IMG/VR virus record: IMGVR_UViG_2541047698_000016
Location: 1-15,911 of that record
Length of the DNA: 15,911 nt
Source of the DNA: a virus
Lineage: Duplodnaviria > Heunggongvirae > Uroviricota > Caudoviricetes
Reading direction: 5' to 3' (one strand)
Both the position numbers and the translations under genes were made by a program. The notes below the pieces were generated by a model. That model saw only the letters and a list, made by a program, of their open reading frames with translations, made no database searches and was not told the origin of the DNA. Shown here in pieces: positions 1,363-15,911 of this stretch. How positions within the stretch are numbered: position 1 is the stretch's first letter; each line of letters starts with the position of its first letter.

Positions 1363-1396
1363 TTAATTTCGATTATTTTTCCCGGATGGAAAATTC

Positions 1397-1439
1397 TTAG
1401 AAACCGATCACATACAGCTGCATTTATTAAGGTTATCAT
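1397..1439 (+). promoter_or_regulatory. Putative CRP-dependent promoter of cyaR: CRP half-site TCACA at 1408-1412, -10 TATCAT at 1434-1439
   Basis: TTAGA-N6-TCACA is a 3/5 + 5/5 match to the CRP consensus TGTGA-N6-TCACA, centred about 42 nt upstream of the inferred CyaR 5' end at 1447. TATCAT lies 7-8 nt upstream of +1. CyaR is known to be cAMP-CRP activated. Confidence 0.45.
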
Positions 1440-1446
1440 CTGTTTC

Positions 1447-1533
1447 GCTGAAAAACATAACCCATAAAATGCTAGCTGTACCAGGAACCACCTCCTTAGC
1501 CTGTGTAATCTCCCTTACACGGGCTTATTTTTT
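1447..1533 (+). ncRNA. cyaR: CyaR (RyeE) Hfq-dependent small RNA, 87 nt
   Basis: Sequence GCTGAAAAACATAACCCATAAAATGCTAGCTGTACCAGGAACCACCTCCTTAGCC... matches the CyaR sequence as I recall it, including the anti-SD-like CCTCCTTA motif. It ends in a GC-rich hairpin (TGTGTAATCTCCCTTACACGGGC) plus T7 run, a rho-independent terminator. Location between yegQ and ogr is as in K-12. Confidence 0.8.
1507..1533. other. P2-type attachment core (attL), 27 bp AATCTCCCTTACACGGGCTTATTTTTT
   Basis: Reverse complement AAAAAATAAGCCCGTGTAAGGGAGATT matches the P2 att core as I recall it. It coincides with the CyaR terminator, and prophage DNA (ogr) begins immediately to the right. Confidence 0.65.
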
Positions 1534-1596
1534 ACGCGTAATACAATGAAATAAAAGGATTTATTTCTGGTCACGTCCACACATTGACCACATCGA

Positions 1597-1622
1597 CAAA
1601 AAAGCCCCTCGACTGAGGGGCT
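1597..1622 (-). terminator. Rho-independent terminator downstream of ogr
   Basis: Hairpin GCCCCTC-GACT-GAGGGGC at 1604-1621. On the minus strand it is followed by a T-run (plus-strand A-run at 1598-1603), about 15 nt after the ogr stop. Confidence 0.5.
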
Positions 1623-1634
1623 TCCTGTTTGTAA

Positions 1635-1853
1635 TTACATCCACATAATTTGCTGCCCTGACGGCAACGGGTGCGGTCTTACGGCGTGGACTTCTCCCGG
1701 CTTCACGATGTATCGCTGTAACGACTCATAAGTGATGAACGTGGCGCTGCAATTCACGTTCTGACACTGGTGATAACGCTCTTTTGTCGTGTCAGTGATA
1801 TAGCGGCTTGTACGCGCATGTGCGGCATGCTGGCATAAAGGACAATGAAACAT
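1635..1853 (-). CDS. ogr: Ogr zinc-finger late-gene transcription activator, 72 aa
   Basis: MFHCPLCQHAAHARTSRYITDTTKERYHQCQNVNCSATF... carries the CxxC-N22-CxxxxC zinc-finger of P2 Ogr / K-12 OgrK. Start placed at the internal ATG (plus 1851-1853) to give the canonical 72 aa; the ORF-track 93-aa version is an upstream over-extension. Confidence 0.88.
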   Translation of the reverse strand: MFHCPLCQHAAHARTSRYITDTTKERYHQCQNVNCSATFITYESLQRYIVKPGEVHAVRPHPLPSGQQIMWM

Positions 1854-1934
1854 CGCGAGCACCTCTTCCGGTTTTGTTGATGGTGCCATTTTAGTTAATT
1901 TATCCTTATAAAACAAACAGATAAAATAAAGACA

Positions 1935-3098
1935 TCACTCATCATCTTCTGTTTCGTACTCCACATCAGAAAGCCTGACCTCAAGCTCTAAGGACGTCGT
2001 GAAGCCGCTATTATTCAGAAAATGTGTCACCTTAGTGATTGTCCAGTCCTGCTCGTCTATGACGCGCTTAAAGCCTGACACTTTGACCGGCGTTTCCGTG
2101 TAAATATCTGCCCGACCAGTAGCCAGACTGATGGAGAACTCCGCAACGCCCCGTTGCAGCTTATCCCACTTCGCCTGAGCGGCGCGCATGGCCTGCGCTT
2201 TCGTGGCATATACCGTGGTCAGGGCAAAAACGTTGTCAGCCTCACCAGCCATGTATTCACCTTCGCGTGCTTCCGGTACTTTTGGCGCTTTCTTCTGCGT
2301 GACTGGTTTCGCTTTCGGGTGCTCCAGTGCGCGCAGGTGTTTCTCTTTCTTTTTGCGTTTCAGTTTTACCTTCTGCTTTTGTGGCTTCGGGTCTTTGGTG
2401 TGTAACCACTTTGCCGTTACGCCGGTATAGGCGCCACGGTCAGCAATCGCAAAATGATGACGGTCACCGTCGCTGCGGGTGATGGTAATCTGCGGGATTT
2501 TTTTACCGCTGGCAGTCACCCCCTGCCCCGCTTTGAGAAACAGCAGTTTTCCCATTTTTACCGACACCTCACCGCCGTTGCGTTCTGCAAGACGGGTCAG
2601 GAATTTCGCATCAGACTCCTGCGACTGGTCGATGTGCGGGATTTTAATTCCGGCCAGTGACGGAGCGACACTGGCTTCCAGTCTGTTACGGGAGGCTATC
2701 GCCTCAACAATCGCACCGAGCGTGGTGTCATGCCAGGAGCCTTCACGGCGGGAATTGAGCGTCCCGCGGAAATCTGCACTCCGGGCGCGGATGGTGACCA
2801 CATCCGGTGCGCCCCGGTGTTCAACCTCATCAACGGTAAATTTCCCTTTGCATACCAGGGCAAAACCTTTCCAGCCGATATACACCGTCAGGACAGCGCC
2901 ACGAACCGGCAGCCCGACCTGCCCGTCGGCATCGTTCAGTTCAATATCAAGCTGGTCAGCCTCAAAGCCCCGGTTATCCGTCAGGGTCATGCTCATCAGA
3001 CGGTCGCTGATATTGCCGGTAATATCCCTGCTGTCGAGCATCAGCATGTAATCCGGCGTCAGCGTACTGCCTGCATCAAATGTCAGCGCGTCCAGCAT
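1935..3098 (-). CDS. D: Tail protein gpD (late control D), 387 aa
   Basis: Length and sequence match my recollection of P2 gpD. Position between U and ogr is canonical, and the start ATG overlaps the U stop (TAATG). Confidence 0.88.
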   Translation of the reverse strand: MLDALTFDAGSTLTPDYMLMLDSRDITGNISDRLMSMTLTDNRGFEADQLDIELNDADGQVGLPVRGAVLTVYIGWKGFALVCKGKFTVDEVEHRGAPDVVTIRARSADFRGTLNSRREGSWHDTTLGAIVEAIASRNRLEASVAPSLAGIKIPHIDQSQESDAKFLTRLAERNGGEVSVKMGKLLFLKAGQGVTASGKKIPQITITRSDGDRHHFAIADRGAYTGVTAKWLHTKDPKPQKQKVKLKRKKKEKHLRALEHPKAKPVTQKKAPKVPEAREGEYMAGEADNVFALTTVYATKAQAMRAAQAKWDKLQRGVAEFSISLATGRADIYTETPVKVSGFKRVIDEQDWTITKVTHFLNNSGFTTSLELEVRLSDVEYETEDDE

Positions 3099-3577
3099 TA
3101 TCCCGCCCCCGTCATACCCGTGAATTTAGTCGCCATACTGCCAGCCTTACCGATGAGCGATTCCGCCTGTTTACCGATATCGCCATAAAGCGCGGCCAGT
3201 GATTCATCAACGCGGGTGAGCGACAACGTAAAATCAATTTTCCGGGGTGTGCCGTCTGCAAAGAAAATACTCCCTGTTTCACTCACCCTGCTGATGACAT
3301 ACATGCCGTAAATCATGCCGGTGCCATCCAGCAACGGCCACGCCCGGCCTTCCTCTGCCATCAGCCTGAGCGTGGTCATCGTCAGCTTGCCGCCGGTCAG
3401 TTCTGGATAAAGCACACCGGCAAGCGTGATGTTTTCCTCACCCACACCGAGAAACTGGTAGGCGTCCCGTTTACCGATACGGGAATTTGACGGCCAGCGA
3501 TAATCTGATTCACGCTGCATGGTCTGGTGTGGCAGCGTCTGGCGCATAAAAACAAACATACCTAACGCGAGCATCAT
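3098..3577 (-). CDS. U: Tail protein gpU, 159 aa
   Basis: Size and position between T and D match P2 gpU. Start codon lies 15 nt downstream of the T stop. Confidence 0.85.
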   Translation of the reverse strand: MMLALGMFVFMRQTLPHQTMQRESDYRWPSNSRIGKRDAYQFLGVGEENITLAGVLYPELTGGKLTMTTLRLMAEEGRAWPLLDGTGMIYGMYVISRVSETGSIFFADGTPRKIDFTLSLTRVDESLAALYGDIGKQAESLIGKAGSMATKFTGMTGAG

Positions 3578-3591
3578 TTTTCGTCACCTCC

Positions 3592-6039
3592 TTAACCGTC
3601 ATGCATCATGCTGGCACGGGCGCGCGCACGTTTATCCCGCTCGTATTTTTCGAGCGCATCCTGTAAATGGCGGTCGAGCTGTGTCCCCGGCGCAGTACCG
3701 CCCGTCAGATTGATGTGATATTCGTTTTTACTCTGGTCCACATAAGAGCGGCCAGCCGGTGCCGTGACCGGCTGGTAAGCCTGATACCCCGCATAAGAGC
3801 CGGTCGCCGGAATATAATCACCTGTGCCATACGTGGCGGCATGAGTTCTGGCGGCAGTCTGGTCAAGTGCGTCAGACTCTTTGTTGATGACGCCGAGTTT
3901 TTCCAGTACCCAGTCAATACCGCTGCGCAGTTTGTTGAACACATTAAGCGGCAGCATCAGCGCGTCAGCCAGTGCCTGCCCGAACATGACCCCCGTGTCA
4001 CGGCAACTGTTCAGGGTGTCCTGAGTGGCTTTGACCGGGGCAATCAGGTTTTTAAACCACTGCCACGCGGCCTGTAACTTTTCACCCAGCCAGTCAAACA
4101 CCGGCTTAAGTGGCGTGAACAGTTCCCCCACCGGCGCAAATGCCACTTTCAGCCCTTCAACCACACCGCCAAAGAATGCGCTGACAGGCTCCCAGTATTT
4201 ACGGATAAGCAACGCCCCGGCGACAATTGCGGCCACCACGGCCACAACCGGCCAGCTAATCGCCCCGATGGCGGTCATAACAGCACTGCCAACCGTCGTG
4301 AAGATTGCCCCCATTGCGCCTGCTGCCGCGATGATGGCATTGATGCCGGTGATAACCGGCCAGGCTACCAGACCAATGGCACCGATGATGCCAATAAGCG
4401 CCAGCGCGCCACCGACAATGAGGCCGATGGTTGACGCCAGTGATTTGTTTTTCTGGATCCAGCCGTCGAGTTTTAACACATACTTTGTGGCCGTCTGCGT
4501 GAGCTTACGCAGTGCGCCTTCCTGCTGGTCAAACAGGTCAGTCCCCACCGCCTCATAAGCGGACTGAAACTCCTTAAATTCACCGCCGAGGTTGTCCTGC
4601 ATGATATTTACCAGCTCTGCGGTCTTTCCGTCTGAGGCTTTAAACGCAGCGGTCAGTTTGTCCAGCTTTCCGGTTGAGGCGGCAGTCATCAGCACGGCGG
4701 CGGCTGAACTGGCCTCCTCCCCGAAAATGGTTTTCATGTATTCAGCCTGCTGGGCAGTACCGAGCCGGTTTTTCTCAAAACTGGCCTGCATTTCTTTCAG
4801 AATGGTAAATACTGGTCGGGTGTTTCCCTTGCTGTCTGAGGTTTTCACACCAAGCTCTTTGAGTGCATCCCATGCTTTTCCCGTCGGTGCCTGCAGGCGG
4901 CTTAACACGGCACGGCTTCCCGTCCCCACCATTGAGCCTGTGATTTTTGCATCATGCAGCGCCCCGACCATTGCGGCGGTTTCTTCAATGCTGACACCGG
5001 CATTTTTTGCCACTGGTGCGGTATAGGTCAGCGCATCGCTCATGCCGTCAAAATCAGCGGCGGTTTTGTTCATCGTCATGGAGAGAACATCCCCGATATG
5101 AGCGACCTTATCGTTTGAAAGCTGAAAGGCGGATTTCATCCCCATCAGCAGGGCGGCGTTTTCTTCCATTGTGCGACGGTTCGCCAGCGCCATATTCAGC
5201 GTGACCGGCGTTGCCGCCTGAATGGCATCAACATCCCCACCGGCTTTCGCAATAATAATCTGCGCACCAGCTGCATCATCTGCCGAGGCTGCGGTATTGT
5301 CGCCGAGCTGACGCGCCTGCTTGCGTAGTGCAGCCATTTCGGTGGAGTCTTTTGCCACACCGAGCACGGCCTGCAATTCTGAGTTTTTCTGCGCAAACTC
5401 ATAACCGGGCATCAGCAGCTTAACTCCGGCCATCGTTCCCGCCGCCGCAATCCCCACACCGGCAGCGCCCACCGAGGCCATATTTCCGGCCAGTTCCTTT
5501 CCGGCCTGATAACGCTGTTTTACTGCGTTAAGTTTTGCCTGTTGTGCACTGACACGCGCCAGCGCGTCACGCTGCCGGTTAAGCTGTGCGGTGGTTTCAC
5601 TGATACGGTTTTTCAGTCCTCGTTCATCATGCGCCAGATTACGGGTATTAATACCCGCCTGACTCAATTCCTGACGCTGGCGCTGTACCGACAATCTCAG
5701 GCTGTTATATTTCACCTGTAACTCAGACGCATTTTTACGCGCGGCTTCCATTGCCTTTGCCTGTGCATTTGTCGGTCGTTCAGTATTTTTAAACTGGACA
5801 GCCAGAGCTGCGGCTTCCTGTCTGGCTTTTTTCAGTTCCTGACCAGTCACGGCGAGCTGTGCACTGGTCTTGCGGAATCCCTCAATACGGGATGCGTGAC
5901 CGTTCAGCTCGCGCAGTGATTTTTGTGTTTCCCGGATATCCCCCGACAGCGATTTGCTCGCTGTGCGGATGGATTTAAACGGGCGGGATGCCTGGTCAAC
6001 AGCCCTGAGCAATACCTGTAATTTTACATTGTTACTCAT
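3592..6039 (-). CDS. T: Tail tape measure protein gpT, 815 aa
   Basis: Long coiled-coil-rich N-terminal half, an Ala/Gly-rich hydrophobic central segment and a C-terminal domain, typical of tape measure proteins. Start ATG overlaps the E+E' stop (ATGAGTAA). Position is canonical. Confidence 0.88.
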   Translation of the reverse strand: MSNNVKLQVLLRAVDQASRPFKSIRTASKSLSGDIRETQKSLRELNGHASRIEGFRKTSAQLAVTGQELKKARQEAAALAVQFKNTERPTNAQAKAMEAARKNASELQVKYNSLRLSVQRQRQELSQAGINTRNLAHDERGLKNRISETTAQLNRQRDALARVSAQQAKLNAVKQRYQAGKELAGNMASVGAAGVGIAAAGTMAGVKLLMPGYEFAQKNSELQAVLGVAKDSTEMAALRKQARQLGDNTAASADDAAGAQIIIAKAGGDVDAIQAATPVTLNMALANRRTMEENAALLMGMKSAFQLSNDKVAHIGDVLSMTMNKTAADFDGMSDALTYTAPVAKNAGVSIEETAAMVGALHDAKITGSMVGTGSRAVLSRLQAPTGKAWDALKELGVKTSDSKGNTRPVFTILKEMQASFEKNRLGTAQQAEYMKTIFGEEASSAAAVLMTAASTGKLDKLTAAFKASDGKTAELVNIMQDNLGGEFKEFQSAYEAVGTDLFDQQEGALRKLTQTATKYVLKLDGWIQKNKSLASTIGLIVGGALALIGIIGAIGLVAWPVITGINAIIAAAGAMGAIFTTVGSAVMTAIGAISWPVVAVVAAIVAGALLIRKYWEPVSAFFGGVVEGLKVAFAPVGELFTPLKPVFDWLGEKLQAAWQWFKNLIAPVKATQDTLNSCRDTGVMFGQALADALMLPLNVFNKLRSGIDWVLEKLGVINKESDALDQTAARTHAATYGTGDYIPATGSYAGYQAYQPVTAPAGRSYVDQSKNEYHINLTGGTAPGTQLDRHLQDALEKYERDKRARARASMMHDG

Positions 6040-6459
6040 TCGTGTTTCCGCTTCGCCGGAGCGCCTTTTCGCGCCATGTGATGAGTTCGGTCAGGCTCAT
6101 GGGATACAGTTCTGATGGCGGCCAGTGAAATATCACTGCCACATCCGCCATCAGGTCATCGACCGAGAGATTTTTCGGAAACGTCACTGCACCGAGTTCG
6201 GCGACAAAAAACCGACCACCTTACCGGCCAGCGCCACAAGGTCAGGCAGTTCCAGCGCGGCGACCTCCTGTTCGGTCAGCATCGGTGCCGTCATGCGCGG
6301 CAGCACTTTAATCAGTGCATCGACTTCGGAGTTCGCGACCGCAGCCAGACTGACACCGCGCAGCGTCCCGGCATTGGGTTTCATCAGCGTGACCTGTTCG
6401 ATAACCTGCTCACCACGCTTGACCGGATTGTCCAGGGTAATCACATTTTCTTTGTTCAT
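6032..6459 (-). CDS. E+E': Tail assembly chaperone gpE+E', about 141 aa, made by -1 programmed ribosomal frameshift at plus 6205-6211
   Basis: After a -1 slip at T_TTT_TTG the reading frame stays open for 58 codons (...FFVAELGAVTFPKNLSVDDLMADVAVIFHWPPSELYPMSLTELITWREKALRRSGNTNE*) and ends at TAA 6032-6034, overlapping the T start. This is the architecture of P2 E/E+E' and lambda G/GT. Confidence 0.7.
6184..6459 (-). CDS. E: Tail assembly chaperone gpE, 91 aa (zero-frame product)
   Basis: ORF ends ...KVVGFLSPNSVQ*; size and position immediately upstream of T match P2 gpE. Confidence 0.85.
   Translation of the reverse strand: MNKENVITLDNPVKRGEQVIEQVTLMKPNAGTLRGVSLAAVANSEVDALIKVLPRMTAPMLTEQEVAALELPDLVALAGKVVGFLSPNSVQ
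6205..6211 (-). other. Slippery heptamer T_TTT_TTG for the E -> E+E' -1 frameshift
   Basis: Minus-strand codons GGT TTT TTG in the E frame form a canonical X_XXY_YYZ heptamer, 6 codons before the E stop. Confidence 0.65.
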
Positions 6460-6515
6460 GGTTTTCTCACTTCTGAATCAGGGTTAACCGGTCAGCCTGG
6501 CTGACCGGATGAAAA

Positions 6516-7034
6516 TCACAGGCCGATATTGCGGCGGTGTTGCTCCAGCCGGTCGACGCCGTTCACCTTCTCAATCATGTTGATGGTGTCGATTTCGACC
6601 AGCTCCTTACCGTCCATCGTCAGCCGGAAATAGGTGCAGACCACGGAGATTTTCGACTCGGTGTCTTCTCCCTGTTTACCCTCTCCGGTGTCGATTTCTT
6701 TCTGACGTCCACGCATGACTACCTCGACGGCCACCGTTTCGCCGGTATCGTCGCGCTGGTAAGAGCCTGCAAAACGAATCGGCACGGCATCCACACCGGT
6801 TGCTGCGTAAAGCTCCCAGATAACCGAATCCGGGAAACCACCGAGCGACCACTCCATTGACAGCGCATCGTCATCAAGGCCGAGGTCTACCGGTGCGCTG
6901 CCGTTCATCCCCGCACCGCGATAGTTTTCGAGCTTACGGGTCAGTTTTGGCAGCGTGACGGACTTTGCAACGCCCTGATAGCTGTAGCCGTTCAGAAAGA
7001 CGTTCATTAACTTGAGTTTGCGCGGCATTGCCAT
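6516..7034 (-). CDS. FII: Tail tube protein gpFII, 172 aa
   Basis: MAMPRKLKLMNVFLNGYSYQGVAKSVTLPKL... matches my recollection of P2 FII. Lies 12 nt downstream of FI. Confidence 0.88.
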   Translation of the reverse strand: MAMPRKLKLMNVFLNGYSYQGVAKSVTLPKLTRKLENYRGAGMNGSAPVDLGLDDDALSMEWSLGGFPDSVIWELYAATGVDAVPIRFAGSYQRDDTGETVAVEVVMRGRQKEIDTGEGKQGEDTESKISVVCTYFRLTMDGKELVEIDTINMIEKVNGVDRLEQHRRNIGL

Positions 7035-7046
7035 CGGTCAGGCTCC

Positions 7047-8237
7047 TTAATTGCTGTTAACCGAGGTGACCAGATTTGCCAGGTATTTATCGGTAATACG
7101 CTGGCGCAGGGTCAGGTTTTCGAGAGGAGGCACCGGTGTATAGTCGTAGTCGATATACAGTTTTCCGGCCTTGAGGGTTTCCGCATCGTTGGATTCTTCG
7201 CTGAACCAGCAGGTCGCATCCACGATATAGCCGTTTGTTTTCAGCTCACGGAATTTGGCATTGATGCCGTCAACGATGTCGCGAATCAGCGTTGCGGTGA
7301 TGGGCTTGTCCACCGCCCACATGTGCGCCTCAGCCATCGTGTCGGCCAGCACCTGCGCGGTGCGGGTGTAGTTTTCAAAGAGGAACAGCGGATCATCAGA
7401 GCAGGTACGGTTACCCCAGAAGCGGAAACCGTCGCGGCGAATCAGCGTAGTGACGCCTGACTCATTAAGCAGGTCAGCATCGGTGCCGGACTCCTGCAAA
7501 TCCCAGAATACAGAGGCGCTGATGCCGGTAACACCGTTCACCCCAACGTTGGACAGTGTTTTATGCCAGCCCTGCTCCTGGTCGATTTTAGCGCGCAGAC
7601 CCAGCGCACGGGCGGTGGCATACGCGGTGGCGGTGGTACTGGTGACCGTATCCCATGCGAGGAAATCCGGCCAGATGACCATCAACTCACGCTGGCTGAA
7701 ATTCTGGCGGTAGGCTTTCACCTCGGAAATAGTTTTACAGCCCCATGCGCTGATATACCCGAAAGCGCGCAGCTTCTGACAGACTGATGCCAGTGCAACA
7801 GCCACCTCTTTGGTGTCCAGTCCCGGCACGCCGAGAATACGCGGTTTAACACCGGTTACCGACTCCGCCGCCAGCAGGGCTTTCAGTCCGGTGTACTGAC
7901 CGTTTTCGTCGGTGGTGCCGATGATATTGGAAACGGTCTGCGCGAGTTTCGTTTCCTCGTCGTCGCCGGTGCCGTCTTCCACACGCACGACAACGGTGAC
8001 CGGTTTTGACTGGTCGGCGATGGCCTGCAACGATGCCGCCAGCGTGCCTTTTTTACCAGCCTTTGCAATTGCGCTCTGCACATTGGTAATCAGCACCGGT
8101 TTATTGAGGGGGAAGGTTTCCGCATCCGCATCGCTGGCCGTGCAGACCATGCCGACAATGGCCGTGGATACGGTGGAAATGACGCGGGTGCCGTCGTTAA
8201 TCTCCAGCACCTGCACGCCGTGATGATAGTCACTCAT
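7047..8237 (-). CDS. FI: Contractile tail sheath protein gpFI, 396 aa
   Basis: MSDYHHGVQVLEINDGTRVISTVSTAIVGM... matches my recollection of the P2 FI N-terminus; size is right for a sheath protein. GGAG Shine-Dalgarno 8 nt upstream. Confidence 0.88.
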   Translation of the reverse strand: MSDYHHGVQVLEINDGTRVISTVSTAIVGMVCTASDADAETFPLNKPVLITNVQSAIAKAGKKGTLAASLQAIADQSKPVTVVVRVEDGTGDDEETKLAQTVSNIIGTTDENGQYTGLKALLAAESVTGVKPRILGVPGLDTKEVAVALASVCQKLRAFGYISAWGCKTISEVKAYRQNFSQRELMVIWPDFLAWDTVTSTTATAYATARALGLRAKIDQEQGWHKTLSNVGVNGVTGISASVFWDLQESGTDADLLNESGVTTLIRRDGFRFWGNRTCSDDPLFLFENYTRTAQVLADTMAEAHMWAVDKPITATLIRDIVDGINAKFRELKTNGYIVDATCWFSEESNDAETLKAGKLYIDYDYTPVPPLENLTLRQRITDKYLANLVTSVNSN

Positions 8238-8249
8238 CCGTTTAACTCC

Positions 8250-8330
8250 GTGGTTAATGGGTGCAACTATTTTCTGTTGGGCAGAGCATGAGACGCTATT
8301 TGACCTGGCTGGTCAGTGGATGAAACAACA
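8250..8330 (-). promoter_or_regulatory. Candidate Ogr-dependent late promoter (PF-like) upstream of FI, containing the inverted repeat TGACC-N5-GGTCA at 8303-8317
   Basis: By position this must be the promoter region of the FI-FII-E-T-U-D operon. An inverted repeat sits about 50 nt upstream of a possible -10. It does not fit the TGT-N12-ACA late-promoter dyad as I recall it, so the assignment is tentative. Confidence 0.3.
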
Positions 8331-8361
8331 GATAAAGAAAAGGCGGGCAATTCGCCCGCCT
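8330..8361 (-). terminator. Rho-independent terminator closing the upstream transcription unit (G or hotspot gene)
   Basis: Hairpin GGCGGGC-AATT-CGCCCGCC at 8342-8360. On the minus strand it is followed by TTTTCTTTATCT. Confidence 0.5.
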
Positions 8362-8535
8362 GTCCTGATTTGTACTCACTCATTTTCCAACTGACTATTT
8401 ACATAGTCCAAACGCTATCAAATCTGACTGTCTGCTTTGAGCGAGGTGCTGACATCCGCATGAATGTATGGAGCTGCCGCACACTCTAAAAATGATAGAA
8501 CGTCTATATATTAATTATCCCTAAGTCCAGTTTTA

Positions 8536-9063
8536 TTAATCAATTTTATTACTTTTACCTGCAACCTTTTTATTATAGTGATAACAAGAAATAGCACTAG
8601 CAAAATAGGATTTTGTCATCGATACGAAAAAATCCAACAAATCTGCCATGTTATCAATATCAATATTTGGTTTAGTTTTACTGGCTTTAGTAATCTTCAT
8701 GTAGAAGTCCACAAACTTACTTTTTTCTTTATCCGTAATCTGATAATTCAATTGATGACTGATTTTATTTCTTATGCTGTTAAAGTCTTTTATTCTTAAA
8801 TATATTTCATCATAAGGGGGGGTTGCAGGCTCATGTTGTATTAAAGCTATTTTTTGTGAAAATGTGAGTTTTGCATCACCCCAAGCTAACGAAGGATATC
8901 TTAATCCAAGATAATCAGTAATATACTTTTCAAGGCTCAAGTGCGCAGTAAGAAAGGCACCTATGAAGGCAACGTCAACCCCATCAACACGTTCCCATAT
9001 GCTTTCATTTTCATCAGTCATACCTGTATACACAGCGGTTGATGCAAGATCTTTCCAGTCCAT
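8536..9063 (-). CDS. Hypothetical 175-aa protein in the G–FI (Z/fun-position) hotspot; candidate anti-phage / abortive-infection effector with a possible HEPN-like R-x4-H motif
   Basis: Intact ORF with AAGGA Shine-Dalgarno 8 nt upstream of ATG and its own sigma70-like promoter. Strongly AT-rich compared with flanking tail genes. Predicted soluble and mostly helical; contains ...FNSIRNKISHQ... (R98-x4-H103). I recall no homolog. Confidence 0.7.
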   Translation of the reverse strand: MDWKDLASTAVYTGMTDENESIWERVDGVDVAFIGAFLTAHLSLEKYITDYLGLRYPSLAWGDAKLTFSQKIALIQHEPATPPYDEIYLRIKDFNSIRNKISHQLNYQITDKEKSKFVDFYMKITKASKTKPNIDIDNMADLLDFFVSMTKSYFASAISCYHYNKKVAGKSNKID

Positions 9064-9098
9064 GCTTTATCCTTTTAAAGGTGAATTTAACGAGTTTA

Positions 9099-9127
9099 AT
9101 TTTATCTCAACTCAATACTTATCTCAA
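9099..9127 (-). promoter_or_regulatory. Sigma70-type promoter for the hotspot gene: -35 TTGAGA, 17-nt spacer, -10 TAAAAT
   Basis: Read on the minus strand: TTGAGA (plus 9122-9127), 17 nt, TAAAAT (plus 9099-9104). This would give a leader of about 28 nt before the ATG at 9063. Confidence 0.45.
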
Positions 9128-9452
9128 AATTTATGAGTAGAAATAACATCCACAAAAAACCATTAAAGCCCTTTTACCTCTTATTATTGATGAAAATGTA
9201 CATTTTTATAAAGAATGTCGAAGAACCTCCTCAGTGGAACTATCAACTACACATTGCAAGACTAGAGTATGTGCAAACCTTTTGACAAGGTTCTGAAATA
9301 TTCATGGTGGCCTTATTATATCAATTTATCTTCACTTTATACATTAACATAGCATGATGTTGATAATGTCCGCTCCTAGCACAGAGCGGACTGTCAGATT
9401 AGGCCTTACTCTGTACTATAGCTATGTTAACTAACACAAGAGATCATATCAC

Positions 9453-9980
9453 TTATTGCGGCATTTCCGGCCATTCAGGATTTGCAGGATCCACACGGCT
9501 GACCAGAACACTGTAGCGTTCCCATGCTTCCAGTCGGCTACGCTCCTCATCTGTTGCCATGTTCAGCCTGACAGCGCGCTCCAGTGGCAAAATCACGGAT
9601 TCAGCATCTGCAAGAAGTCTGGCTTTCCGGTTTTCTGCCTGCTGCTGCAATTCCTCTGCCGTATAAATGCGTTTAATCACTTTGCCGTCCTTAAACATCC
9701 AGTTCCCTGAAATGTCCGCCCGTCGGTTAGCAGTAATATCCGCCACTTCAACCACACTTAATCCATCTGGTCTGATAGCTGTCACATCTTTTTCCACATA
9801 GCGGATAATATTATCCTTGTCGTACGCTATTTTTATCGTGTCATCAGCAAAATACTTTTGTTCTTCGTACCAGTTCTTACCATCTTCTGTAAAAAACCAG
9901 ACAACATCAAAGTCCTTTGTCAATTGATATTGTTCAACCGTTTTTGGATTACCCGCGGTTATATTTATCAAATGCTGCAT
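9453..9980 (-). CDS. G: Tail fiber assembly chaperone gpG, 175 aa
   Basis: Conserved C-terminal ...[43 protein letters not shown] and N-terminal MQHL...GNPKT..EQYQLTK match my recollection of P2 gpG. Lies immediately downstream of H. Confidence 0.88.
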
Positions 9981-9983
9981 AAA

Positions 9984-12302
9984 TTATACCTGTGCCACGT
10001 TATACCATGTCCCGTTAATGTATTTCTGCACCGGTCTGTAATATACGCCACCAATGTTATCGGCAGAGTTTGAGCCGGTATCCTGAACAATAATGCCGGA
10101 ATATACACACCCGGACGGTGCCTGATGTGTCCATGTCATGCCATTGTTCGCAGGTTTGTATGTGGCAGCACCACCAAGCCGGATATCCCGGACATAGCGT
10201 GAATCAAAATTACTATAGTTAGATGGTGATACCTGCCCGTTAACAGCAAAAGTGATGCTGTTATCTGTATTTCTCTGACTGTAAAAATGCCAGCCTGCAT
10301 CATCACCTAATTCAGCCACCACCGGACGACTTGAGTTTCCCCACAAATTGAATGCGGCTTCCTTCGTGGATGTATTACTGCTGCTGACCGTGAATTTTTT
10401 CCCGCTACCGGCACGTACTTTGGTACTTGAGGCAATATCACCAGTAACACTCAGGCCATGCCCCATTGATACAGCACCCGTGGCATCATTTATAATCAGT
10501 GGTCTTAAATTATTATAAGTGCCTAATCTGTCACCTGATTTAGTCAACATAAAATAAGTGCTGCTGCCATCATTCCTGATAAAGAATCCATAATTGCCAT
10601 AAGCAATGCGCAGACCATTAGCACTGCTTGATGTAATCTCACCTCTTGAACGGAGACCATAAGCGGAGCTGAGTGATAATTCTTCCTGAGCATCAGTATT
10701 ACCAGTCGCCCAGCGAACTACCCCGCCCTGTACTGTTTCATGCCAGATAGTGTCTCCTTCTCCACCACGAAACTTTCTGAGATATTTTTTGCCGCCTCTG
10801 GTGCCTGAACATAAGGCCGTAGACATATAGGCATTCTGGCTTCCGCCATCCTGATTAATCGTTCCGGTCATTGCGTCGCCCTGACGATTCCAGTCACGAC
10901 GCCAGCCGGGGGAGTAGCCGTCCCCATGATTAATGTAAGTGAATTGCGCGCTGGTTGTACCGCCACCGCTTGATGTTGTCGGCGTGGTCACTCGGATAGT
11001 GATTGCAGATTTAGTTCCCATGACCTCGACGACACAACCAGCCAGGTGGATATCACCACATCCGGTATCCGTAATGATTTTGTTATTTGCATATGACCAG
11101 GAGCCTTTGCACATCCAGTACGGATGATTAAATGCACCACGGGAATCCAGCCATTCAATAAACTGAGCGGTTGTCCAGTTTCCGGCTTCAGTGCTCAAAG
11201 CGCCGCTATAAGCACGACAGGCACCGATATTTTTCGTGAAGGTATCCTTTCCCGGAATATCCGCACCGTTCTGATCTTTCTGAAGACGTTTTTCAGCATT
11301 GTCATAGGCAGACTTCACTGCTTTTGGCGTTGCCGCGAGGGTTTCAGAATCACTGTTGGTGGCGCTACTGAGCTGGACAAGCCCTTTTCGCGCTGTGGTG
11401 GCATCCTGTGCAGTGTATTTCCCGTTAGCAAGGTCATACGCTGTCTTAACCGCCTTTGGCGTTGCCGCAAGCGTTTCAGAATCGCTGTTGGTGACGCTAC
11501 TTAGCTGGACAAGGCCTTTTCGCGCGGTGGTGGCGTCCTGTGCGGTATATTTCCCGTTAGCCAGGTCATATGCTGCTTTTACCGCTTTTGGTGTTGCAGC
11601 GAGCGTTTCAGACGTGCTGTTGGTGGCACTACTGAGCTGGACAAGACCTTTTCGCGCTGTGGTGGCATCCTGCGCAGTATATTTCCCGTTAGCAAGGTCA
11701 TACGCGGCCTTTACCGCTTTCGGCGTTGCGGCCAGTGTTTCAGACGTGCTGTTGGTCGCACTGCTTAACTGAGTAAAACCTTTGGCGGTCAGCGAGGCGT
11801 CCGGGTGACGTCGTGACTGTTCGTGCTCTGCAATTTTGTCATCAACGTAATCCTGCGTCGCCATCACTGTTGTGGTGTCAATGGTCAGCTCCACTGAGGC
11901 CACACTGCTGACGATGATGACCATGCGACAGGTCTGCGAACGCCCTGAGCCTTCGGCGAGAGCTGGCTTATAACTTTCGGCCATGTTCGCCACAGCAATT
12001 AACGTTCCCGCATCATCGTACAGGCCAAGCTCACGCATCCAGAAACCGCCCACCTCCGGCGGAATAACCAGCTCTGCGATAATATAATTACTGTTTCGTT
12101 TGTCCTGGCTGATTTTGTTCAGCGCATGTCGCCAGACTTCGTGGATAAGCCCGGTCTGTCCGGCATCCGGGACAGGCAATTTACCACCGCCATCCCCGAC
12201 GGCCATCGTGGTAATGTTGACCTTCCGCCCTCCCGGTGCGGTTGCCGCTGCCAGCTTTGCTGCACCGGCAGTGGTGATAACGGTTCTGAATTTTGTGCTC
12301 AT
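9984..12302 (-). CDS. H: Tail fiber protein gpH, 772 aa, with internal tandem repeats and a mosaic receptor-binding region
   Basis: N-terminus MSTKFRTVITTAGAAKLAAATAPGG... and C-terminus ...RPVQKYINGTWYNVAQV are P2 H-like. The central region carries 44-aa tandem repeats and a Cys/Trp-rich domain. Confidence 0.88.
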   Translation of the reverse strand: MSTKFRTVITTAGAAKLAAATAPGGRKVNITTMAVGDGGGKLPVPDAGQTGLIHEVWRHALNKISQDKRNSNYIIAELVIPPEVGGFWMRELGLYDDAGTLIAVANMAESYKPALAEGSGRSQTCRMVIIVSSVASVELTIDTTTVMATQDYVDDKIAEHEQSRRHPDASLTAKGFTQLSSATNSTSETLAATPKAVKAAYDLANGKYTAQDATTARKGLVQLSSATNSTSETLAATPKAVKAAYDLANGKYTAQDATTARKGLVQLSSVTNSDSETLAATPKAVKTAYDLANGKYTAQDATTARKGLVQLSSATNSDSETLAATPKAVKSAYDNAEKRLQKDQNGADIPGKDTFTKNIGACRAYSGALSTEAGNWTTAQFIEWLDSRGAFNHPYWMCKGSWSYANNKIITDTGCGDIHLAGCVVEVMGTKSAITIRVTTPTTSSGGGTTSAQFTYINHGDGYSPGWRRDWNRQGDAMTGTINQDGGSQNAYMSTALCSGTRGGKKYLRKFRGGEGDTIWHETVQGGVVRWATGNTDAQEELSLSSAYGLRSRGEITSSSANGLRIAYGNYGFFIRNDGSSTYFMLTKSGDRLGTYNNLRPLIINDATGAVSMGHGLSVTGDIASSTKVRAGSGKKFTVSSSNTSTKEAAFNLWGNSSRPVVAELGDDAGWHFYSQRNTDNSITFAVNGQVSPSNYSNFDSRYVRDIRLGGAATYKPANNGMTWTHQAPSGCVYSGIIVQDTGSNSADNIGGVYYRPVQKYINGTWYNVAQV
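11300..11790. repeat. Tandem repeat, 132-bp unit, about 3.7 copies, in frame within H (44-aa phage tail-fiber repeat)
   Basis: Unit starts at 11341, 11473, 11605 and 11737, with a partial copy from about 11300. Copies are roughly 90% identical and encode (Q)LSSATNS(T/D)SETLAATPKAVKAAYDLANGKYTAQDATTARKGLV. Confidence 0.85.
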
Positions 12303-12312
12303 TATTCCTCAC

Positions 12313-12843
12313 TTATCCGGGGTAAACCGTAATTACATCGCCGTCGTAAGCCACACCACCGGCGAACAGGTAGCCGGGAATGTCCCGGGTAATGTTCAGG
12401 CCAATAAGGTGGCGGCTTGCAGGTTTGGCATCAGCAATCAGCCGTTCCATTTCCTGATACATTGCCTCTGTGATGCCGCTTTCCAGTACACCAATATCAA
12501 GCCGGAAGGTGCCGGGCGGGTCACTGTTTTCCCACCACTCCGTCACGTTGATGAGATAGCCGAGCGGCTCCACCACACGCCGGATTGCACCTATTGTGCC
12601 TTTATGACAGTGGATGAAATACGCATCGCGGATAACGGCGCGTTTTGTCGCTTCCGGCCACTTTTCATCCCACCTGTCGACCGAAAACGCCCACGCCAGC
12701 CACGGCAGCAGATTTGCCGGACAGGTGTCCGGGTTCCACAGCTCACGAATACTGACCGGCGTTTTTTCAATTTCCGCACAGGCTTTTGCGGCGGCGACCT
12801 CAAGCGGTGATGAGCCGGTCGGCAGCAGTCGCGAATCACTCAT
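12313..12843 (-). CDS. I: Baseplate protein gpI, 176 aa
   Basis: Size and position between J and H are canonical; start overlaps the J 3' end by 8 nt. Confidence 0.85.
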   Translation of the reverse strand: MSDSRLLPTGSSPLEVAAAKACAEIEKTPVSIRELWNPDTCPANLLPWLAWAFSVDRWDEKWPEATKRAVIRDAYFIHCHKGTIGAIRRVVEPLGYLINVTEWWENSDPPGTFRLDIGVLESGITEAMYQEMERLIADAKPASRHLIGLNITRDIPGYLFAGGVAYDGDVITVYPG

Positions 12844-13744
12844 CCGAGCCTCCGGTCACGACGCGGTATTCGGTACAGAAAGACGCCTGCGTACTGTTGA
12901 GCACGATGTCGGCCAGTGGTGCAGCCAGTTCGACACGCTGCACACCTTCCACATGCAAAGCGGCATAAATGGCAGACAGACGGATGTCGCGCCCCAGCCT
13001 GTGCTGTGCCGTGATATACGCTTCCAGCTTTTTCACAGCGGCAGCGCGGATGGGTTCGCTTTCGGGACCAGGGTAAAGGTAAAGCGTGGCGTTTATCTGG
13101 TATTCAACGATGGCGGCAGACTGCACGGTCACGCGGTCGGCCACCGGCCTGACGTCCTCGCCATTAAGGGCGTTACGCACCACAGCCAGCAGGTCTTCGG
13201 ATGCGACGCCGTTATTTTCACGTGACAGCACAGAGATAGTGACGCAGGCCGGAGACGGACTGGTGACAGAGATATCCGCGACACGCCCGTCGGCACTGCG
13301 GCCATGATACTGATAGGCACCCACCGACCCGGCGACGCTTAAACCTTCAAACGCCTGCTGAATACGCAGCCGATAATCGGTGTCAGATTCCATCACTGCC
13401 GGTGTCGGCGGAATGGTCGAATCATCTGCCGGGGTGATAGTCAGGCGCGTGGTGTTGTAATTGGCACCAATCACATCAAGGTCATTACCGGCGGCACAGG
13501 CCAGCATCACCGCCCGTGCGGCCTCATTCACACGCTGACGCCAGATAAGCTCACGATAAGCATTTTCTTCCAGCAGTTTGACGAGAGGCTCAGATTCCAG
13601 TGTCAGGGTACGGGCGACCGCCTCCTGCTGATCTTCCGGGTAAAGGGAAATCAGTGTCGCCTTGCGTTCAGCGAGAATGCTTTCAAAGTCCAGCTCCTCG
13701 ACCACATCCGGTGCGGGTAGCTGGTTCAGGTCGATAATCGGCAT
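12836..13744 (-). CDS. J: Baseplate assembly protein gpJ, 302 aa
   Basis: Size and position between W and I are canonical for P2; gpJ is a gp6-like baseplate wedge protein. Confidence 0.85.
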   Translation of the reverse strand: MPIIDLNQLPAPDVVEELDFESILAERKATLISLYPEDQQEAVARTLTLESEPLVKLLEENAYRELIWRQRVNEAARAVMLACAAGNDLDVIGANYNTTRLTITPADDSTIPPTPAVMESDTDYRLRIQQAFEGLSVAGSVGAYQYHGRSADGRVADISVTSPSPACVTISVLSRENNGVASEDLLAVVRNALNGEDVRPVADRVTVQSAAIVEYQINATLYLYPGPESEPIRAAAVKKLEAYITAQHRLGRDIRLSAIYAALHVEGVQRVELAAPLADIVLNSTQASFCTEYRVVTGGSDE

Positions 13745-13748
13745 GGTT

Positions 13749-14096
13749 TCAACTCACAGGGATGGTTAATGAAAGTGGCTGGCCGGTGTCGTTGTGCTGG
13801 CCGGTTAACGTGACCGTCATTCGCCCGTCAAAACTGCGCTCAGTGGTGACGGATGACAGGGTGACGCGGGGTTCCCATTTCAGCACCGCCATGTAACAGG
13901 CGACCTTAATCTGCAACTCAAGCGCCGGGGTCTGCGGCTGGTCAATCATTGATGCCAGCAACGAGCCGTAATCACGACGCATCACCCGTGAGCCGACCGG
14001 TGTGCGCAGGATATCGCCGATACTCTGGCTGATATGCTCAAGGTCAGTGACAGTCAGGCCATCACTGCGATTCATTCCGAGATAACGCGCTGTCAT
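13749..14096 (-). CDS. W: Baseplate protein gpW (gp25-like), 115 aa
   Basis: Size and position match P2 gpW; start ATG overlaps the V stop (ATGA). Confidence 0.85.
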   Translation of the reverse strand: MTARYLGMNRSDGLTVTDLEHISQSIGDILRTPVGSRVMRRDYGSLLASMIDQPQTPALELQIKVACYMAVLKWEPRVTLSSVTTERSFDGRMTVTLTGQHNDTGQPLSLTIPVS

Positions 14097-14728
14097 AAAG
14101 GACTCCCGGTTGTGCCGCCGCTGTCGCCGGGGTGTTTATGGGTATGCAGTACCTTACCGTTTGATGAGAGTTCACCGCCGGTGTGTTCAATGTTGCCGCG
14201 CATCGTCCCGCCCTTCTGCACTTCCAGCGTGCCGGTAGTCAGTTTGTTGGTGCAGACCACTTCCGGTGTGTCCAGGGTGATGCGGGTTGATGCTTTCACC
14301 ATAACCACCGGCACCGTGGCAGTAACAGAATCAGAAGCCATCACGCTGGCCGTTTTAACTCCGCTTACCGTGAGCGCACTGGTTTCAGGTTCATACTCAA
14401 TCACCGCCCCGTCAGGGAAACGGATATGCAGGGCATCCGCCGACGCAGACGGCGCGGGGTTATCGCCGGAATAAATCCCCGGCAGAACGAACGCCGTGTC
14501 GAGTTCACCGCCCACGGCCAGAATCAGCACCTGTTCCCCCACGGAAGGTGCCCACCATGTGCGCGAACGTCCGGCGCGATGGGTCAGCCACTGAAGCCAG
14601 TCGGTGCACATGCCGCCGGTCTGCACACGGCAGCGACCGGCGTTAAGGTCGGTTTCGACGATAATACCGGTGCGGATCATGTTGCGCAGTGCACGCGCGA
14701 GTTCCTGAATATTTGCGAGAGTGTTCAT
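14093..14728 (-). CDS. V: Baseplate spike/hub protein gpV, 211 aa
   Basis: MNTLANIQELARALRNMIRTGIIVETDLNAGRCRVQTGG... matches my recollection of P2 gpV (211 aa). Start placed at ATG (plus 14726-14728) rather than the ORF-track TTG at 14746. Confidence 0.82.
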   Translation of the reverse strand: MNTLANIQELARALRNMIRTGIIVETDLNAGRCRVQTGGMCTDWLQWLTHRAGRSRTWWAPSVGEQVLILAVGGELDTAFVLPGIYSGDNPAPSASADALHIRFPDGAVIEYEPETSALTVSGVKTASVMASDSVTATVPVVMVKASTRITLDTPEVVCTNKLTTGTLEVQKGGTMRGNIEHTGGELSSNGKVLHTHKHPGDSGGTTGSPL

Positions 14729-14811
14729 GCATGTGAGATTGCACAATATATAAAAGTTATGCTATCTGGATTCATTTGTAGAACTACCAGACAACATTCA
14801 AGGAGAGCGTA

Positions 14812-15597
14812 ATGGTCAGCTATAATGTGACTAATGTGTGGGGGCTAATCGTTTTTTTCCTTTGTAGCTTTGCAGTATTAGCATTTTTTAGCTTTGGTAA
14901 AAGTAACCTTATGAGGCTTATTGCACATTATTTCAATTTTGGATATTCAGACAAAAAATTAAAAAGACTTGACCGCGAGTGGCGCGACATTCAACTATTT
15001 AAAATAATTAACGGAATCAATGTATCAGGCATTGAAAATGTGAGAATGATACAGCAGGGACTGATTGATGGAAAACTAAAAACATCGTATTTTTTTCTTA
15101 CTCGCATCTGGGGTGACATAACAAAACCACCACACATAATTAAAACAATAATTGTAATTCTGGCCAGTATTTTTTACATTCTCCTCGCATGTTACATACA
15201 CAACGTACAATCCGTTATAGTAAGGGATGCCATAGGCATACCATATAAAAACATGATGTACTATGTTTATAGTGACAAAGTTCTTTTATCCTTCAAAAAT
15301 AAAGCAGTTGAATTTAATAAAACTTATAGCCTTGCCGATTGCAAGAGACTGCAAAACGTATTTATAAAAGACACACTTCCTGAGATCGCCTGCAATAAGC
15401 TCTTACAGCTAAACGAGGAGGACTCCGAATGGTTAAGCCAGGAGATTAAAGATAATAACAGTCACAAAAAAGCATTATTAATACTATCCCTCGTCTATTT
15501 CACTTCAGGTCTGGTTATATTCCTGTCATATACAAAATTCTTTTACGCCAATAAGAAGGTTTTAGAATACAAAGCATCAAATAAAAATCACTCATAA
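14812..15597 (+). CDS. Hypothetical 261-aa integral membrane protein (3 predicted TM helices), AT-rich moron at the S–V junction; candidate exclusion/defense factor
   Basis: ATG preceded by AGGAGA Shine-Dalgarno at 14800-14805. Strongly AT-rich. Hydrophobic segments at about residues 10-28, 112-132 and 222-240. Divergent from V. I recall no homolog. Confidence 0.65.
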   Translation: MVSYNVTNVWGLIVFFLCSFAVLAFFSFGKSNLMRLIAHYFNFGYSDKKLKRLDREWRDIQLFKIINGINVSGIENVRMIQQGLIDGKLKTSYFFLTRIWGDITKPPHIIKTIIVILASIFYILLACYIHNVQSVIVRDAIGIPYKNMMYYVYSDKVLLSFKNKAVEFNKTYSLADCKRLQNVFIKDTLPEIACNKLLQLNEEDSEWLSQEIKDNNSHKKALLILSLVYFTSGLVIFLSYTKFFYANKKVLEYKASNKNHS

Positions 15598-15603
15598 ACC
15601 TCT

Positions 15604-15638
15604 AAACATTGAGCGACCAGCATGGCCGCTCAATGTTT
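15604..15638 (+). terminator. Hairpin, possible terminator for the membrane-protein gene
   Basis: Perfect 12-bp inverted repeat AAACATTGAGCG / CGCTCAATGTTT with an 11-nt loop, starting 7 nt after the stop codon and followed by TTTAATTG. The T-tract is imperfect. Confidence 0.35.
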
Positions 15639-15700
15639 AATTGCGCATCAGCCTCTGCCTGGATAAAACTAACGCTCAAGGTGAGCCAGGATAATCTCTT

Positions 15701-15911
15701 TAGACTGGCCCCCTGAATCTCCAGACAACCAATATCACTTAAATAAGTGATAGTCTTAATACTAGTTTTTAGACTAGTCATTGGAGAACAGATGATTGAT
15801 GTCTTAGGGCCGGAGAAACGCAGACGGCGTACCACACAGGAAAAGATCGCAATTGTTCAGCAGAGCTTTGAACCGGGGATGACGGTCTCCCTCGTTGCCC
15901 GGCAACATGGT
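15701..15911 (+). mobile_element. IS2 (IS3 family) left end, partial; continues beyond the window
   Basis: TAGACTGGCCCCCTGAATCTCCAGACAACCAATATCACTTAAATAAGTGATAGTC... matches the IS2 left inverted repeat as I recall it, followed by the insC start. Confidence 0.85.
15792..15911 (+). CDS. insC: IS2 transposase OrfA (InsC), N-terminal 40 codons only
   Basis: [40 protein letters not shown] matches my recollection of the K-12 IS2 InsC N-terminus; CDS is truncated by the window end. Confidence 0.85.

Follow-up and report, generated by a model that had tools for sequence, protein, structure and literature searches.

The window analyzed here is a stretch of 15,911 nucleotides (nt), positions 1 to 15,911 of IMG/VR virus record IMGVR_UViG_2541047698_000016. 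It covers the right half of a P2-like Escherichia coli prophage, with all phage genes on the minus strand, and its order is yegQ, the small RNA (sRNA) gene cyaR, ogrK, D, U, T, E/E', FII, FI, cargo, G, H, I, J, W, V. The cargo between the tail sheath gene FI and the tail fiber assembly gene G is the subject of this study. Its sole sizeable open reading frame (ORF), ORF175, encodes a RefSeq hypothetical protein of 175 amino acids (aa), and we found no mention of WP_021517187 in the literature. The predicted fold and the invariant residues of this protein point to a HEPN ribonuclease (RNase) encoded by a lone gene, for which we favor a role in anti-phage defense.

The G-FI slot and its cargo

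From about 8300 to 9500 the GC content drops to 0.30-0.39, against 0.55-0.59 around it. In a comparison of P2-like phages, the homology of the backbone runs up to ~8455 on the FI side and starts again from ~9365 on the G side, so the variable cargo is 8456-9365 (32.5% GC, compared with 56.7% for FI). An earlier interpretation of this DNA, made from the letters alone (the sequence-only reading), had described an AT-rich island at the P2 G-FI hotspot and given it the span 8362-9452. The insert and the hotspot are borne out by the composition and by the identity of the slot, but the span was too wide. The stretch 8240-8455, including the intrinsic terminator upstream of the FI late promoter, is conserved P2 backbone, and so is the counterpart, by homology, of the pF activator site annotated in P2. 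The hairpin of this terminator with its T-run, also pointed out before, is confirmed. However, it is not the cargo's own, as the same terminator stands in P2 upstream of the annotated pF site; it probably ends transcripts crossing the cargo. Just past the G stop, conserved backbone at 9355-9452 (minus strand) can form a hairpin of ~11 pairs (AGUACAGAG...CUCUGUGCU). This hairpin is a doubtful terminator, with no T-run and an unremarkable fold energy (z = -1.6).

The slot is the fun(Z) locus of P2, and its cargo differs between phages. In reference P2 it spans ~2 kb and holds the V-operon terminator followed by fun(Z), which encodes 528 aa on the opposite strand. Other cargo includes orf44 of Wphi (299 aa), a 181-aa protein in P22H1 (gp22) and PhiR44_1, and three genes in Yersinia phage vB_YpM_117. 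ORF175 has no similarity to Fun(Z), Wphi orf44, P22H1 gp22 or the other AT-rich ORF of the window. Like ORF175, the first three are AT-rich foreign cargo in the same slot within the same conserved boundary repeats, whereas Fun(Z) differs from ORF175 in its length, its strand and its place behind the V-operon terminator. Conserved backbone boundaries, foreign composition and variation between P2-like phages place ORF175 among the cargo of this slot. P2 fun(Z) is a T5-exclusion gene, its product blocking T5. The fun locus (G-FI) was described as the second defense-enriched locus of P2, with three validated systems (Vassallo et al. 2022, PMC9519451); Rousset et al. 2022 treated the old/tin slot only. 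Among 969 complete E. coli genomes that match the G-FI junction, 49 carry the ORF175 cargo, which rules out a structural or universal P2 protein.

Two 35-nt arms of an imperfect inverted repeat bound the variable cargo exactly (core AATCTGACNGTC ... GACNGTCAGATT). They are complementary at 28 of 35 positions, whereas composition-matched shuffles average 22.3 and never exceed 26 of 35. Both arms are kept in P2, Wphi, vB_YpM_117 and P22H1 around wholly different cargo. Because no clear compensatory changes are seen in the arms across the compared phages, pairing of the arms has no support. The arms may serve recombination, as anchors for cassette exchange, or may insulate the slot, and they could help explain the precise swapping of cargo in P2-like phages. 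Nilsson and colleagues are said to have discussed recombination at P2 accessory loci in 2004. The positions of these features are collected in Table 1.

Table 1. The G-FI slot of the window, its cargo and its flanking genes, with positions in the window.
Feature	Position	Strand	Remark
FI, tail sheath gene	7047-8237	-	flank of cargo
Intrinsic terminator, GGCGGGC-loop-GCCCGCC + T-run	8361-8331	-	9 pairs; fold z = -3.7; upstream of FI late promoter
Left arm, 35-nt imperfect inverted repeat	8421-8455	no strand	FI-side cargo boundary
ORF175 (WP_021517187.1, RefSeq hypothetical protein)	8536-9063	-	175 aa; ATG start
R98-N99-K100-I101-S102-H103 codons	8755-8772	-	predicted HEPN RNase active-site motif
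E45 codon	8929-8931	-	invariant acidic residue of long N-terminal helix (motif G35..L38..H41-L42..E45)
Non-coding leader of cargo, upstream of ORF175	9064-9365	-	AT-rich, 29.8% GC
Shine-Dalgarno-like AAGGA	9070-9074	-	6 nt before ATG; read from sequence
Candidate sigma-70-like promoter, TTGAGA-17 nt-TAAAAT	9127-9099	-	10/12 matches
Right arm, 35-nt imperfect inverted repeat	9366-9400	no strand	G-side cargo boundary
G, tail fiber assembly gene	9453-9980	-	flank of cargo
H	9984-12302	-	

Protein family, predicted fold and comparison with HepS

The protein encoded by ORF175 has a mass of 20 kDa and is predicted to be soluble and all-alpha with a short N-terminal beta-hairpin, in keeping with the soluble, helical protein anticipated by the sequence-only reading. 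In PHROGs it falls into phrog_5483 (2.7e-60), a family listed with unknown function. Its close homologs form 23 clusters at 58-98% identity, from Escherichia, Citrobacter, Superficieibacter, Pectobacterium, Yersinia, Serratia, Enterobacter and Ewingella, and they share the invariant block F-N-x-I-R-N-K-I-S-H-x-L-N-Y. An exhaustive HMMER search returned 211 distant cluster representatives at E <= 0.001, mostly of 160-210 aa. The lack of homologs noted in the sequence-only reading is thus overturned.

In an alignment of 92 sequences (A3), which are 21-98% identical to ORF175 and most of them only 21-30%, the residues G35, L38, H41, L42, E45, R98, N99 and H103 are invariant. The R-x4-H segment R98-H103 had been noted before as similar to the catalytic motif of HEPN RNases, with the caution that such a pair could occur by chance. 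Because it is invariant across 92 diverse relatives, the pair is not a chance occurrence. According to Anantharaman et al. 2013, the HEPN motif sits at a helix end, its arginine is mostly followed by N, D or H, and another conserved acidic residue often occurs upstream of R-x4-H in HEPN families. In the structural model of ORF175, the invariant R98-N99-K-I-S-H103 is found where helix 87-103 ends on its C-terminal side, right ahead of the loop that leads to helix 111-127, in agreement with the described position of the motif. E45 is invariant, but the fourth position after it is T49 instead of the K or R of the typical E-x3-[KR]. Single members of the family give weak Pfam matches, and all of these are to HEPN families (Cthe2314, MAE_28990, RiboL-PSP and Csm6).

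The AlphaFold2 model built with A3 is all-alpha, with a predicted local distance difference test (pLDDT) score of 85 and a predicted template modeling (pTM) score of 0.78; an earlier model from the close homologs only (A1, 21 sequences) had a pLDDT of 53 and was discarded. When the model was compared with the PDB by Foldseek, the top matches were chains of HepS, with a probability of 0.97-1.0 over 155-161 columns and a template modeling (TM) score of 0.44-0.51. The structural match is to the HepS protomer. Nothing significant was found by Foldseek in the BFVD viral library. The HEPN-like fold that the sequence-only reading had named as a check in structure prediction is therefore found, and we conclude with high confidence that ORF175 has the predicted HEPN fold together with the catalytic motif.

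HepS (STM14_3211), or 'HEPN Solo', is an abortive-infection anticodon nuclease of the Salmonella prophage Gifsy-1 (Sargen et al., Nature 2026, PMC13043305; PDB 9oij, 9oik). It is constitutively expressed as a non-toxic, auto-inhibited tetramer and is activated by the binding of a peptide from the siphovirus J tail-tip protein. Active HepS cuts the anticodon loops of tRNA-Thr, tRNA-Ile and tRNA-Ser via R100/H105 and aborts infection. The HepS family was delimited in the same study as PSI-BLAST relatives of <250 aa with R-x4-6-H (PMC13043305).

HepS is the nearest solved or characterized protein to ORF175. A profile search of all PDB sequences gave HepS (9oij, 9oik) as the sole match, with E = 0.026 for the close family and E = 3.9e-7, over 41 residues, for the broad family. 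The 214-aa HepS sequence was read from IMG/VR prophage contigs, where 10 loci matched a degenerate DNA pattern. No match came from a 37-aa fragment of HepS (tblastn, phage collection), a 43-aa fragment (protein homolog search) or the degenerate DNA pattern in genome contigs. The HepS copies retrieved were all 97-100% identical. HepS belongs to phrog_5712 and matches phrog_5483 at 1.3e-8 over its residues 72-126 (55 residues), and ORF175 itself matches phrog_5712 weakly (0.045). Compared directly, ORF175 and HepS align over 34 residues at 32% identity by BLASTP and over 30 columns at a probability of 89.7% by hhalign.

Both are stand-alone, prophage-encoded HEPN proteins of ~200 aa (214 for HepS and 175 for ORF175) that have no partner gene. 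They carry R-N-K-x-[AS]-H at nearly the same position (R100/H105 and R98/H103), the two motifs align with each other, and the flanks of the motif are alike, NSIRNKISHQLNYQITDKEK of ORF175 being similar to its HepS counterpart. Their PHROG families cross-match, and neither protein has a Pfam family above threshold. In addition, ORF175 resembles the HepS family, whose genes have no partner or inhibitor and are often on prophages, in being a stand-alone gene of <250 aa with no conserved neighbor in six contexts, mostly prophages or a satellite. However, HepS lies in the early region of a lambdoid siphovirus and ORF175 in the tail-gene slot of a P2-like myovirus. The two also belong to different PHROG families, the TM score between them is only 0.44-0.51, and ORF175 is shorter C-terminal to the motif. 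Because the direct similarity is short, we treat ORF175 as a member of a putative sister family of HepS within the HEPN superfamily, and not as a demonstrated HepS ortholog.

Among the partnered or multidomain HEPN defense RNases, MNT-HepT (DUF86), AbiD/AbiF (Abi_2), AbiU2, AbiV, RnlA/LsoA, PrrC/RloC and Csm6/Cas13 have in common with ORF175 the four-helix HEPN core and the metal-independent RNase motif R-x4-6-H, in which a polar residue follows R. Many of them are abortive-infection or toxin effectors. ORF175 does not fit an MNT-HEPN toxin-antitoxin pair: the cargo has no neighbor ORF, there is no DUF86 or nucleotidyltransferase (NTase) match in Pfam, and an MNT gene is absent from every homolog context examined. 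The MtlR/YggD HEPN-fold regulators (PDB 3brj, 3c8g, 6kcr) are chromosomal housekeeping proteins tied to the mannitol operon, and only ~60% of them keep the motif. ORF175 is similar to them in fold only, with no Pfam MtlR match and a prophage-hotspot context.

Relatives in other genomes and neighboring features

Among E. coli prophages from IMG/VR, copies of ORF175 at 97-98% identity keep their place beside FI (99%), with G (76-97%) and H varying. Homologs at 60-61% identity lie after the tail-fiber gene of a divergent P2-like prophage and adjoin an AbiGi gene. A homolog from Ewingella (63%) is found between portal/Ogr and GpA, that is, in P2 hotspot 1, the classical old/tin hotspot, and one from Pectobacterium (82%) in a chromosomal island with DUF2971, a helix-turn-helix (HTH) gene and a reverse transcriptase. 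Among the distant members, one is beside HEPN_AbiU2 and T5orf172, another is in an integrase-bounded island with DUF4365 and DUF3800, and a third is in a P4-like satellite with integrase, Ogr/Delta and Toprim primase. The gene has moved alone between defense hotspots. At the DNA level, the E. coli and Pectobacterium copies are homologous only across the ORF itself plus 15 nt on its upstream side and 47 nt on its downstream side, so the mobile unit is the bare gene and the 300-nt leader is no conserved partner of it. The homology begins 15 nt before the ATG and so takes in AAGGA, the Shine-Dalgarno-like element that the sequence-only reading had likewise recognized.

The ratio of nonsynonymous to synonymous substitution rates (dN/dS) between the E. 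coli and Pectobacterium copies is 0.147. ORF175 is under purifying selection, and this value together with the conservation across genera rules out a spurious ORF, in line with the intact gene described before. ORF175 is present in 50 of 5426 complete E. coli genomes, always on the chromosome and at 95-100% identity, and in no PLSDB plasmid. An antitoxin or noncoding RNA (ncRNA) within the cargo was also considered and rejected: cargo and leader match nothing in Rfam and are free of tandem or notable repeats, and the leader is not conserved with the gene at the Pectobacterium locus.

Two of these neighborhoods hold further genes of interest. In the divergent P2-like prophage (L014, Logan ERR5464317), positions 5708-7177 hold AbiGi (PADLOC 2e-31) and an unannotated 228-aa gene beside the 60% homolog. 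The tail genes beyond these two are inverted. A multi-gene defense cluster occupies the equivalent tail-fiber-distal position. In Pectobacterium sp. PL64 (L013, 4284-4784 and 5001-5510), a diverged paralog of 166 aa with ~34% identity and R-N-K-F-A-H stands directly upstream of the homolog. This tandem solo-HEPN pair might form hetero-oligomers.

Elsewhere in the window, the CyaR (RyeE) sRNA gene (1445-1530, plus strand; Rfam 100.7 bits) lies between yegQ and the ogrK end of the prophage, so the prophage abuts cyaR, a known attachment region of P2-like phages. A second AT-rich accessory ORF (14812-15597, plus strand; 33.8% GC, 261 aa) stands just past V and antisense to the late genes, which is where orf30 lies in P2. 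The ORF falls into phrog_2407, of unknown function, has no match in Pfam or PADLOC, and is interrupted by an IS3 element in strain GF43. Just past it, at 15602-15640, the same Rfam hairpin model, mir-9256, is matched on both strands far below threshold, so this segment is a near-perfect palindrome, and it is probably a bidirectional terminator. Next to the cargo, a shift toward AT is also seen in G (45% GC) and in the 3' part of H. In prophages whose ORF175 is 97-98% and FI 99% identical to those of the window (L039-L044), the identity of G is only 76-97%, and H has a mosaic structure. The tail-fiber host-range module is exchanged independently of the neighboring cargo.

Proposed role of ORF175 and its alternatives

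We hypothesize that ORF175 came into the G-FI slot by horizontal transfer, as a single-gene 'moron', and that its product is a stand-alone HEPN RNase, which works as a one-gene abortive-infection system. We hold this account to be probable, though not strongly so. A defense role as such, argued from context and by analogy, is fairly likely. The sequence-only reading had proposed a candidate novel anti-phage effector, possibly a single-gene abortive-infection HEPN RNase. The locus, the HEPN fold and the single-gene precedent of HepS sustain this proposal, but its novelty is weakened by HepS (PMC13043305).

The proposed mode of action follows HepS because this is the closest characterized relative. 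A lysogen would make the ORF175 protein as a latent homo-oligomer, after the example of HepS. A component of an infecting phage would then bind and activate this oligomer, and its paired R98/H103 sites would cleave RNA of the cell, the most plausible target being tRNA anticodon loops. With translation halted, the infection would abort, so that the lysogen population and the prophage would be protected. The details that are carried over from HepS by analogy, which are the oligomeric latency, the protein trigger and the tRNA anticodon target, are tentative, and we rate them as possible but somewhat short of probable.

Several observations weigh against a HepS-like defense gene expressed in the lysogen. 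ORF175 has no match in PADLOC-DB v2 (v2.0.0) at E <= 10 (0 families, with Abi, PD-T4/T7/Lambda and PDC candidates included) and none above threshold in Pfam or NCBIfam. The sequence similarity to HepS is limited to ~30-55 residues around the catalytic helix. Moreover, the part that follows the motif is 39 residues shorter in ORF175 than in HepS, so the trigger-binding N- and C-terminal strands, the tetramer interface and the tRNA specificity of HepS cannot be assumed for ORF175. The sequence-only reading had given the gene a near-consensus promoter of its own. The two promoter elements are present with the spacing listed in Table 1, but promoter-like matches in the AT-rich region are not above those in shuffles (6 found, 5.1 +/- 2.2 expected). 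Because the count equals the shuffle rate, this promoter is a candidate only, though a plausible one. Finally, ORF175 runs in the same direction as the late operon, and the stretch from the G stop (9453) to the ORF holds no canonical terminator, the only one being downstream, at 8361-8331. Given the orientation and the lack of a canonical terminator after G, late read-through transcription is likely in P2's lytic cycle, and ORF175 may also, or only, be expressed at that stage. If so, either P2 leaves the ORF175 protein untriggered or this protein has some function in the lytic cycle.

The second of these options leads to the alternative that ORF175 serves the phage itself. Transcribed with the late operon (V-W-J-I-H-G), it would act in P2's lytic growth or in conflicts between elements, with no protection of the lysogen. 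It could degrade host RNA, counter host defense, or interfere with P4-like satellites or competing prophages at induction. We consider this improbable, since close homologs are found outside late operons (the Pectobacterium island and the gpA-portal hotspot), distant members are seen in satellites and in Abi-carrying chromosomal islands, and the gene is missing from ~95% of the junction-carrying E. coli genomes (present in 49/969) and is therefore not needed for P2 growth. These distributions have to be set against the arrangement in the window, which does suit a phage-serving gene. ORF175 is oriented like the late genes, the interval from the G stop to the ORF shows no canonical intrinsic terminator, and the hairpin after G has no T-run (z = -1.6). 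This differs from P2, where fun(Z) is antisense and a V-operon terminator stands before it; no canonical V-operon terminator precedes ORF175.

ORF175 could also be the toxin of an addiction or toxin-antitoxin module that stabilizes the prophage. The unrecognized antitoxin would then be a small RNA or a peptide from the AT-rich leader, or else a factor whose gene lies in another place. This is quite improbable, as neither MNT nor any other conserved neighbor is seen in any context examined and the leader is free of an Rfam match, of tandem repeats and of conservation in Pectobacterium. Nor does a solo HEPN protein need an antitoxin to be harmless, since HepS shows that it can be non-toxic by auto-inhibition (PMC13043305). 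It is very improbable that ORF175 is a non-catalytic HEPN regulator of the MtlR/YggD type, or an RNA-binding protein, that changes host physiology (lysogenic conversion) with no RNA cutting, because R98, N99, H103 and E45 are invariant in a family otherwise only 21-30% identical, non-catalytic HEPN lineages characteristically lose the motif, and ORF175 has neither a Pfam MtlR match nor a mannitol-operon context, its surroundings being mobile elements and Abi genes.

Returning to the abortive-infection account, we can extend it to the family, with less assurance. ORF175 might found a second solo-HEPN abortive-infection family (~200 clusters at 50% identity, Proteobacteria), which would respond to a trigger other than the siphovirus tail tip of HepS and possibly cut another RNA. 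It would move as a bare ORF between P2-like slots, P4-like satellites and chromosomal islands, and the 35-nt repeats would be functional anchors for cassette exchange or insulation. Taken with all of its parts, this extension is rather unlikely.

A solo prophage HEPN abortive-infection nuclease (HepS, 2026), HEPN domains as defense effectors, and the slot as a published hotspot are already established. What is new is an uncharacterized family with a clear catalytic signature and a strong defense-hotspot distribution, which is missed by current detectors (PADLOC, Pfam and NCBIfam). If its role is confirmed, a compact one-gene immune module of 528 bp, present in ~1% of E. coli genomes, would join the defense catalog. 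The case for the P2 G-FI slot as a place to mine for defense genes, like the old/tin slot, would also be stronger. In addition, a second solo-HEPN family could be compared with HepS to learn how one small protein senses phage yet stays harmless before, and a trigger or RNA target different from that of HepS would be an informative outcome.

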